From NCBI GenBank assembly GCA_044892505.1, contig CM097884.1, forward strand, positions 144,770,001 to 144,834,000: 64,000 nucleotides of DNA, given 5' to 3'. The position numbers were made by a program, and so were the translations under genes. This DNA is from Schmidtea nova (Eukaryota). Below the pieces are notes generated by a model, which was not told the DNA's origin, did no database searches, and worked only from the letters and a program-made list of their open reading frames with translations. Position 1 is the stretch's first letter; every line of letters begins with the position of its first letter. Shown in pieces: positions 16,981 to 19,443 of this stretch.

Positions 16981-17234
16981 GCTCTTCTCAAGTTTTCTCT
17001 TTTCAAGAGTTCTAATTTTATGGGATGAATTGGGAAAATCAAGGAGGTTATTGGCATATAGGTCACACTTTAACAGTTTTTCTTTTCAATTTAATGATGA
17101 AGAACAAATAAAGAAATGATTTAATTGGGTGAATTTAAGACATTTTAGAGCAGAGAAGAATTTATCCAAATGAAATAAAATAGATTTAAAAAAATATTTA
17201 TTTCAAGAAATCTGTTGCTTCGATTTAGAAAATC

Positions 17235-17480
17235 AGTCATCTTTCATTGTCAATAGAAAACAACTGGAAGGTTGTCCATATCTCAATTCTGCATTAAGCA
17301 GTATCGGTGAAGCGTGTATGAACCATTTCTCTGACTTTAAGTTATAAGTCTCAATTGCACTTTCAATATCATCCTTGTAGATTCCAACAGCTGCTCTCAT
17401 GAACATGTGTTGTGGTCGTCCTACGACCTTGTCAGCGATTCTAAGAGATAAGACTTTTTCAGCGTTTTAGAACTTTTGGA
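17235..17480 (-). pseudogene. RRM1: Ribonucleotide reductase large-subunit fragment (about 80 codons, one frameshift)
   Basis: [74 protein letters not shown] matches the conserved class I RNR R1 segment. Confidence 0.88.
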
Positions 17481-17667
17481 TCTTGGGCTTTTAAATAATT
17501 ACTTCGGTAGTTATATTTTTCAATTCTATTTGAACTGTCTCTTTTCAATTCATCCTTTTTCATGGTTTGGTTCAAGGTGACGTGAGACATAACAGGTTGA
17601 TTCCGATATTCTTTATAGCTGGTTGACCTTTCTTCATGATTTGATTTACCTTATTCCATTGTTCCTT

Positions 17668-19443
17668 TTATCTCAATAATCTGCTTTGTTCGTTGTAACT
17701 TATCCTGTAACCAACTATGTAAGATTTTAATTGGAGGTTTCTATATAATCTCTCTTCTCCGCCGTAATTTAATTCTAGCCTTTCCAACGCCGCATCATAC
17801 GCTCTCGAAGAATATCCCAAGTTCTCAATCAATTTCAATGGTTCTCCAGTAAGATATTGCATGAGATGTTGTAACTTTTCTTCTTTTGAACCAAGTGCTT
17901 TATCTATCCGGACTTCAAAACAAGCTTTCCAGGCCGGATATTCTTTTATTTGTCCATTAAAAACTGGAACCGTTAACCTTTTAAGTTTTTCTAAAGTAGG
18001 TACGTATTCTTCTGTTCTTATTTTATCCGTTTTAATTCCAATCCTTTTATTCGTATTGGCATCAATTTGATTATTTAAATCCTCATCCTTCTCAATAATT
18101 TCTTTTATATCATTCTTTATCTTTTTTACTTCAATAACCTTCCCTAATGTCTCACCCAATGTATTTAACTCTATGAATTTTTCTATTGTCATCTCATACA
18201 TCTCTGAATATTCTTCATATACCTTTGTTCCTTCTGAGTCAGCTAAACTTAATTTAACTCGATTCCTAAGCCTGGTTAATTTATTTTTGTTCGAAGATAT
18301 CCTACTCATTCCATCGCAAAATACTTCCTCCTCGTTCCCTCCTTTCAACCGCAGAGTTAAATGTAGTGTAGCTCCCCTTTTAATATTATAATGGGATAAC
18401 GTCTTAATATTTTCTAATATCCTCCCAGAAAAGATTAGTAACTGTAGATCTGGTGGAATTCCTTCCTTGTCCTGAATTTTTTCTTTTATATTTTCAATAA
18501 TATCCTTTGATTCAACTTCTATTGAAATTGTTTTACCTGTTAGGGATTTCACAAAAATTTGCATTTTATGAACTGGTTGAAGTATCTGTTCCTCTTGAAC
18601 TTTATTAGGTTTTCCCATAATTTTGAATCGCTTAAATGTTTTCTGAAATTGGATATCCTGGGGCCCATAGCAAGATATCAAATTAATTTTAACATTCTCT
18701 TTATTTATTATGAGGGATTTGATCAATCTGAACCCCCCAGACTCCCACATGATATTAATAAATAACAACAATAAATCTAGCCTGTTGATTATCGTCGATC
18801 CATCCTGTGGTCCCGGTGAAAACGTCAGCAGTCTGAATTGGCCAAGCAAAGTTCCAGAAACTCGGTTGTTATTGGCATCCGGAATGACATTGATTTTGTC
18901 ATCGACCTTTTGGAGAATTTCATTGAATTTCGGATAGAATTCATATCCCTTGATTGATTGAGTGACTATTGGCACTAAATGGCTGACTAGGTTGGCAGCA
19001 TCATCAAATCGTTCTGACATTATTTCTCTCATCAATCCAACAATTGTAGAGGGGTTTCCATTTATTCTTGATTTGAGACTTTGCAAAACAGCTACCAGAT
19101 TAAGATTGCAAAACGATTTACAGAAATCGGCAATTGACTGACCAAGTGATCGAAAGACATAAATGTTTAAGAGAAAACGTGAATAAATATCCAATTCCTC
19201 ACAAGTGTTGAGAAATGTTGCGAGATAATAATAGATATTGGAGCCCCAACTCAATGTGGGTCTATTCTGAAACGGTTCTGATTTTGGGTTGATTTTGTGA
19301 GAGGCTTTTGACACCCTCCGTTGTTTTTTAATATCCATAGATTTCGCGTGGCCCCCCGATGGGAACCACGCTCTGCTACCATGTTGCTTCGATTTAGAAA
19401 GGCAGTCATCTTTCATTGTCAATAGAAAACAACTATATTCCAT
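17668..19443 (-). CDS. 591-aa chimeric ORF: RNR-derived start, unassigned region, ubiquitin-like domain (18337-18564), BEL/Pao gag (DUF1759-like) domain
   Basis: [10 protein letters not shown] at the N-terminus; [87 protein letters not shown]. Confidence 0.8.

Follow-up and report, generated by a model that had tools for sequence, protein, structure and literature searches.

A deleted copy of a BEL/Pao LTR retrotransposon in Schmidtea nova, from a family that carries host-derived LTR leaders and ubiquitin ahead of gag

The stretch of Schmidtea nova DNA examined here (the window, 64,000 nucleotides of contig CM097884.1) is AT rich and crowded with transposon debris. On its minus strand, a reading frame stays open from stop to stop between 17668 and 19467 (599 amino acids, or 591 counted from an ATG at 19443), as a sequence-only reading of the same DNA had reported. 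Pfam assigns residues 304-374 of the 591-residue product to ubiquitin (E 2.7e-24) and residues 503-578 to DUF1759 of gag (E 5.7e-07, covering just the first half of the model), bearing out both domains proposed in that reading. The ubiquitin shares 53 of 76 residues with human ubiquitin by alignment count, and is unlike canonical conjugated ubiquitin in that L42, R48, R63 and K74 replace R42, K48, K63 and R74. The features of the locus are as follows.

17668..19443, minus strand: the 591-residue ORF as a whole, made up of an accidental flanking ATG, LTR tip, primer site, leader, ubiquitin, truncated gag and frameshifted tail
19382..19434, minus strand: last 53 bp of the 5' LTR, the end of an RRM1 piece plus a tip ending CAACA, 98-100% identical to the LTR ends of intact copies
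19364..19381, minus strand: primer-binding site, complementary to the 3' end of host tRNA-Met(CAT) and translated in frame as GSRAW
18892..19310, minus strand: in-frame segment from within a host C2H2 zinc-finger gene, 83% (nucleotide) and 72% (amino acid) identical to the host gene
18565..18891, minus strand: remaining leader, an open frame without a located source or a Pfam match
18652..18679, minus strand: hairpin with a GGGCCC palindrome in its loop, encoding SCYGPQ; candidate RNA dimerisation loop
18337..18564, minus strand: diverged ubiquitin ending LRLKGG, with R48 and R63, fused in frame to gag (Pfam, alignment)
17735..18336, minus strand: N-terminal part of BEL/Pao gag and first half of DUF1759, 98% identical to intact copies
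17471..17734, minus strand: more gag, out of frame past a 226-bp deletion at 17733/17734 (comparison with intact copies)
17213..17467, minus strand: last 255 bp of the 3' LTR, an intron-less host RRM1 piece (17236-17467) plus LTR tip

The direct repeat described earlier as about 57 bp is real but narrower, measuring 53 bp (17213-17265 and 19382-19434, 51 of 53 positions identical), and its copies are the 3' tips of two LTRs. Behind the 5' LTR tip is a tRNA-Met primer site. A tandem unit had also been suggested, and was rejected. The ATG at 19443 sits outside the LTR remnant in flanking DNA and the start is therefore accidental; the ORF ends as it does because the 226-bp deletion at 17733 shifts the frame. 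The lower repeat copy (17213-17265) reads ...MKDD-stop-FSKSKQ, so that the frame is closed there, and the adjoining RNR pseudo-exon occupies 17236-17467. A second, multi-kb deletion at 17469 leaves gag directly next to the final 255 bp of the 3' LTR. The protease, reverse transcriptase (RT), RNase H, integrase, PPT and initial part of the LTR are lost through this deletion, which amounts to 3,613 bp relative to copy L025, which is itself already pol-deleted. The remainder of the 5' LTR is absent. With two deletions and a 53-bp 5' LTR remnant the window copy cannot work alone, and we conclude that the locus is a dead relic of an LTR retrotransposon, not a gene.

Several other sequences lie in the window. 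On the plus strand, a group I intron-like sequence occupies 19430-19744 (RF00028, 42.7 bits, E 1.7e-9, under the gathering score of 50), past which, at about 19750-20700, are a broken phospholipase-like exon and integrase scraps that we take to be of Maverick/Polinton type; 39053-41790 (plus strand) presumably represents Maverick-like polymerase scraps. Minus-strand sequences include a hAT transposase at 11237-13171, a Gypsy-type integrase fragment at 15985-17085 that is unrelated to the BEL element, and a young Gypsy element at 29104-35630 with 100% identical LTR blocks and with gag (DUF7041), pol and integrase in separate frames. A profile search for a ubiquitin-like domain in this Gypsy element gave no match.

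A DNA search of the same genome returned 40 scored candidates, all of them 92-100% identical to the window element. There are also 43 exact LTR-end-plus-primer sites, and 83 first-look candidates for the internal piece. Ten copies were examined over 20 kb each. Five have LTR pairs that are 99.5-100% identical, 715-1,221 bp long and bounded by TG...CA; of the others, one lies inside a larger duplication, two have partly matching LTRs and two are without a second LTR. Target duplications, seen in six copies, are 5 bp in five of them and 7 bp in one, and the same PPT stands ahead of the 3' LTR in five of six copies, but is deleted from the window copy. The primer site matches host tRNA genes that ARAGORN types as tRNA-Met. 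Genome-wide there are 2,677 matches, and once 1,034 tRNA-type matches (the count for the tRNA 3' pattern) are subtracted, about 1,640 exact primer sites remain. The tRNA-Met genes are arranged in a 458-bp tandem array from G000:C1:510.09 Mb onwards (L249-L251).

The sequence-only reading had called for a search for other ubiquitin-gag copies and their LTR and pol context, and such copies were found, some of them with intact LTRs and pol. Sister copies encode ubiquitin, DUF1759, DUF1758, RT, Peptidase_A17, integrase and DUF5641, some of them without part of pol, and some copies keep an unbroken 2,255-residue frame, with its start inside the 5' LTR and its stop inside the 3' LTR, that contains a prenyltransferase piece, ubiquitin, DUF1759, RT, Peptidase_A17, integrase and DUF5641. 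All 120 outside pol relatives listed carry PF05380. Like BEL/Pao elements (Belpaoviridae), the family has TG...CA LTRs, a 5-bp target duplication, a tRNA primer site, a PPT and one gag-pol ORF with DUF1759, DUF1758 protease, RT, Peptidase_A17/RNase H, integrase and DUF5641. It differs in that the ORF starts in host-derived LTR sequence and crosses the primer site, and in that ubiquitin precedes gag. Judged by its sequence, the window element belongs to a young BEL/Pao LTR retrotransposon family and has suffered deletions, and the dispersed intact copies uphold the earlier suggestion of a retroelement with ubiquitin ahead of gag.

The LTRs of this family contain pieces of host genes. A search with a C-terminal model finds one RRM1 locus in the genome, and the RRM1 copies in the LTRs are ~90% identical to it. 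Three of its introns are missing from these copies, whose first nucleotide lies 15-30 nt upstream of the host start codon. The RNR fragment, for which host and viral origins had both been entertained, is therefore of host origin, and a viral source was rejected on the same match; the missing introns agree with the mosaic origin through RNA and template switching that had been put forward. One intron of the host RRM1 gene has an apparent GC donor (G000:C3:85.233 Mb, L043). The cargo is exchangeable: in some LTRs a CobW piece replaces part of RRM1 in frame, whereas others carry a prenyltransferase-beta piece starting with ATG, or prenyltransferase joined to RRM1. Every captured piece stops about 20 nt short of the LTR end, and at the junction between RRM1 and the LTR tip the letters TGAC are common to both. 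The host CobW gene was not found using the CobW_C model.

A second kind of cargo lies inside the element. Residues 21-164 of the leader correspond to a host zinc-finger gene at G000:C1:115.37 Mb (83% nucleotide identity over 433 columns, 72% amino acid identity), named homologues of which come from flatworms at 33-40% identity. About half of the ~280 residues left unassigned by the sequence-only reading is thus accounted for, whereas about 110 residues are still without a match: 18565-18891 is uncovered by the five matches found among 1.84 billion proteins and has no Pfam match. Comparison of donor with host locus covers RRM1 and the zinc-finger gene; all other donor names (prenyltransferase, ubiquitin and so on) are putative assignments from Pfam or resemblance. 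Many of the captured pieces are internal parts of genes rather than 5' ends. Compared with the host genes, captured pieces show pN/pS of 0.23-0.39, which is below expectation for a fully disposable leader and could be due to synonymous change on the host side.

In intact copies, a single frame runs from the host-derived ATG in the LTR via the primer site, the zinc-finger piece and ubiquitin into gag and pol. Within the family set (50 loci, 41 distinct), the frame is open for 100 or more codons upstream into the LTR in 32 of 41 copies. We also drew a sample regardless of ubiquitin, comprising 60 of the first 100 primer sites listed on contig C1, of which 59 were usable. The gag frame is open for 80 or more codons into the LTR in 48 of these 59 elements, the corresponding counts for the other two frames being 0 and 2. 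The 48 open leaders represent 38 types, and because leader types share junctions by descent they are not independent events. Pfam families typical of host genes, of 10 kinds, match 28 of the 48 (HECT, enolase, TCP-1, FKBP, SAM decarboxylase, ThiF, ANAPC2, TPR, PSD13 and FHA); further copies have leaders with Vps35, CID, PAC1 or an internal HSP90 piece, and one leader begins with what we take to be calmodulin-like sequence.

Length differences among leaders largely respect the frame. Prenyltransferase-type leaders of 450, 402, 384 and 336 nt occur, 25 of 28 being multiples of three; out-of-frame leaders number 3 of 28 in this type and 2 of 6 in the RRM1 type. Deletions of 48 nt (10 of 26 copies) and 66 nt (11 of 26) both have GT..AG ends and so were probably spliced out of element RNA. 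Shared large deletions in the family are multiples of three, shared stops are absent from both the LTR leader and the internal leader, and the few frame-breaking indels, each recurring in two or three copies, fall at G runs.

Selection was assessed in 39 of the 41 copies, two that are interrupted by other insertions being dropped. For alleles present in at least two copies, ubiquitin and gag have dN/dS values of 0.29 and 0.30, against 0.74 in the internal leader and 0.73 in the LTR leader (26 copies); for private alleles it is 1.63 for ubiquitin, 0.70 for gag and 0.77 for the internal leader. The excess of nonsynonymous change among private ubiquitin alleles (6 synonymous, 34 nonsynonymous) over shared ones (10 and 10) is significant (Fisher p=0.006), whereas the same contrast is not significant for gag (p=0.08) or leader (p=0.90), nor is the contrast between ubiquitin and leader (p=0.06). 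From these comparisons, ubiquitin appears to be under purifying selection like gag, and the leader much less so.

Ubiquitin is a regular part of the wider clade. It is matched in 55 of the 59 sampled elements, 34 of 51 ubiquitins in the sample have lost their own Met, and KGG is present in 39 of 39 aligned family copies. In three sister BEL families ubiquitin occupies the same position, and its C-termini read MGLKGG, LRLRGG and LRLCGG. Across the four BEL families gag DUF1759 is 38-63% and ubiquitin 41-71% identical, with synonymous sites saturated in 5 of 6 pairs and GG kept in 6 of 6; ubiquitin residues 42, 68, 70, 72 and 74 vary. Because the tail has drifted (K74 in the window family, with L42, and C74, N74 and G72 elsewhere), recognition by deubiquitinases is not assured. 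In sister families (L162-L169, L221, L230), a partial or whole second ubiquitin precedes the first, beside an HSP90 piece, as if from a polyubiquitin mRNA.

The sequence-only reading had compared a 10-residue motif in the leader with APE-type LINE endonucleases. No APE endonuclease Pfam family matches at E up to 1, and we rejected this origin because the motif reflects a nucleotide palindrome, GGGCCC, that is read in different frames in different families. In 49 of the 59 sampled elements and 37 of the 41 family copies, GGGCCC lies no more than 1.5 kb from the primer site, compared with 0-2 of 59 sampled elements for seven control palindromes. The conserved ATGGGCCCC hairpin loop may be a kissing-loop dimerisation signal of the BEL clade, for which it is a candidate by sequence.

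Relatives outside this genome indicate that the plan is old. Among the 120 outside pol relatives listed, those ranked 2, 5 and 7 have ubiquitin upstream of gag and translate their primer site as GSRA, and the top-ranked one begins with an LKGG tail; 117 of the 120 are without a ubiquitin annotation, many of these proteins being partial. The relatives ranked 1, 2, 5 and 7 form one branch with two gag-less partial proteins (SH-aLRT 98) in a quick tree of 44 rows without a non-BEL outgroup. In protein searches, matches to ubiquitin-gag were swamped by polyubiquitins, and gag alone found nothing at E 1e-5.

A Gypsy element nested in one BEL copy provides a parallel. Its LTRs carry the N-terminus of NOMO1 in frame with gag, and its family (L035:6145-10000, L036; L077-L101) is very young, with 40 scored copies at 97-100% identity. 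Ahead of gag are a host-derived LTR leader, a Q/N-rich stretch and a ubiquitin-like domain. Of 25 copies examined, 23 could be oriented (16 of NOMO1 type, 6 with another leader that includes a PCMT piece, and 1 truncated), and LYGG precedes gag in all 23. The predicted fold of the domain is a beta-grasp (pLDDT 83) whose top PDB matches are ubiquitin, SUMO and ISG15 folds at 13-25% identity; the Pfam match is weak (E 0.021), a PDB sequence search left the Gypsy ubiquitin-like domains unconfirmed, and the assignment is by fold prediction only. Among 29 other DUF7041 gags listed, 11 have a related di-glycine-type tail and most others an ordinary Met start. On the predicted fold, the Gypsy family appears to share the BEL plan of host leader, ubiquitin-like domain and gag, and the two plans likely have independent origins. 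By chance, the frame of the nested Gypsy 3' LTR continues into the BEL pol that it interrupts.

Given these observations, we consider it probable that the locus is what deletions have left of a young BEL/Pao retrotransposon with host mRNA pieces in its LTRs, in frame with ubiquitin-gag-pol, and that ubiquitin is a linker likely cut by deubiquitinases to free Gag. Host mRNA pieces lie in both LTRs, immediately before the ~20-nt LTR tip. Reverse transcriptase primed by tRNA-Met would switch, at a short match, from the LTR tip to a host mRNA packaged with the element and then return to the element, after which the new LTR would be copied to both ends. As first-strand synthesis heads toward the 5' end of the host mRNA, capture would tend to bring a start codon. 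Translation would follow one frame from the host-derived LTR ATG via the primer site to the 3' LTR, and because this frame spans LTR to pol, only in-frame captures would leave gag-pol translatable and out-of-frame captures would be lost. Cleavage after the di-glycine would give Gag an identical N-terminus whatever the leader, so that the leader could be swapped freely while ubiquitin is conserved. Swapping leaders may pay, as a disguise against small-RNA silencing and by borrowing translation starts, or may merely be tolerated.

It is also conceivable, but unlikely, that ubiquitin stays on Gag, or is partly cut, and serves in binding or in signalling turnover (as in ESCRT recruitment or tuning of Gag levels), with the leader removed by the element's protease or tolerated. 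Residue I44 is retained in 6 of 6 family representatives, R48 together with R63 in family A would block the main chain types, and in retroviruses ubiquitin-Gag fusions replace late domains. An uncleaved module, however, would be expected to lose GG, yet the feature that varies least is GG with a residue other than proline after it, with LxLxGG in 52 of the 59 sampled elements and the next residue never proline, while surface residues vary; furthermore, families B, C and D keep K48. We regard as still more improbable that Gag is made from its own Met, or from spliced or internal RNA, leaving leader and ubiquitin as passengers that are open by drift and short age. A Met does follow GG by 10 residues in family A and directly in family C, and in copies this young open frames persist. 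Nevertheless, family B lacks a Met in the stretch from GG to the displayed start of the gag domain, purifying selection acts on ubiquitin both within the family (p=0.006) and between families, where synonymous sites are saturated, and neither the frame bias of 48:0:2 nor shared large deletions in multiples of three fit a passenger. Public-run contigs (four runs from one study) cover the family deeply, but none spans the two private internal deletions of the window copy; a joint skipping 17213-19449 in two of the four runs has a short side of just 20-27 letters and is weak as evidence of an empty site. That the ORF is a domesticated single-copy host gene or an assembly chimera, which only those missing contigs favor, is scarcely credible and is refuted for the architecture, as the window copy belongs to a multi-copy family with LTRs, is 98-99% identical to dispersed intact elements, has an accidental start and a broken, frameshifted end, and all its junctions besides the two private deletions recur in dozens of copies.

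The reading that we prefer, in which a ubiquitin linker frees Gag from a host leader, resembles known systems in part. LTR-mediated retroposition, as described by Tan et al. 2016 in the available text of PMC5131818, captures spliced host mRNA by template switching at short matches and yields multi-gene mosaics, often in the frame of the parent gene, maize Bs1 being cited; the intron-less host piece and the short match (TGAC) at its junction are alike. The captures in that text replace internal parts of ORFs to give non-autonomous copies, whereas in this clade, as a rule, pol-intact elements have the cargo in both LTRs and fused to gag-pol. In cytopathic BVDV, cellular hydrolases cleave captured ubiquitin, even if it is truncated and preceded by other host sequence, and so produce the authentic N-terminus of the downstream viral protein (available text of PMC8310069). 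Those are sporadic RNA-virus recombinants, whereas the ubiquitin before Gag is an old, fixed and diverged feature of a retrotransposon clade. The giant planarian Gypsy elements Burro/GYPSM1 are also LTR elements of flatworms and have captured domains, among them a Ubi2/SUMO-like motif, but they belong to a superfamily other than BEL, and the motif follows Gag within a 5,000-aa polyprotein; an LTR-borne in-frame host leader is not described in the available text of PMC6431247. A literature search, outside most subscription papers and the repeat libraries (Repbase/Dfam), found no ubiquitin-gag BEL element and no in-frame LTR cargo.

There is good sequence support for the locus revealing a new variation on LTR retrotransposon design; the LTR-tip nature of the repeat, the exchangeable LTR cargo and the clade-wide architecture were absent from the sequence-only reading. 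When LTR elements capture genes, this is as a rule an infrequent mishap that disables them, whereas here capture is the normal state of a large active clade and would be rendered harmless by one module. More tentatively, flatworm LTR elements of two superfamilies may have converged on a disposable host leader, their LTRs rewritten with pieces of housekeeping mRNA that would supply a start codon and a piRNA disguise, and a built-in ubiquitin would allow host enzymes to remove this disguise from Gag. In planarians, according to the available text of PMC6824462, PIWI proteins break down the RNA of transposons, and host mRNAs may be licensed by them. These elements would thus offer a natural test of whether transposons disguise themselves using host sequence. 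The fragments of housekeeping genes that they scatter through the genome may also be a source of small RNAs against host genes, of read mis-mapping and of false gene models. If the proposed cleavage is true, it would place a host-protease step in the maturation of retrotransposon Gag.
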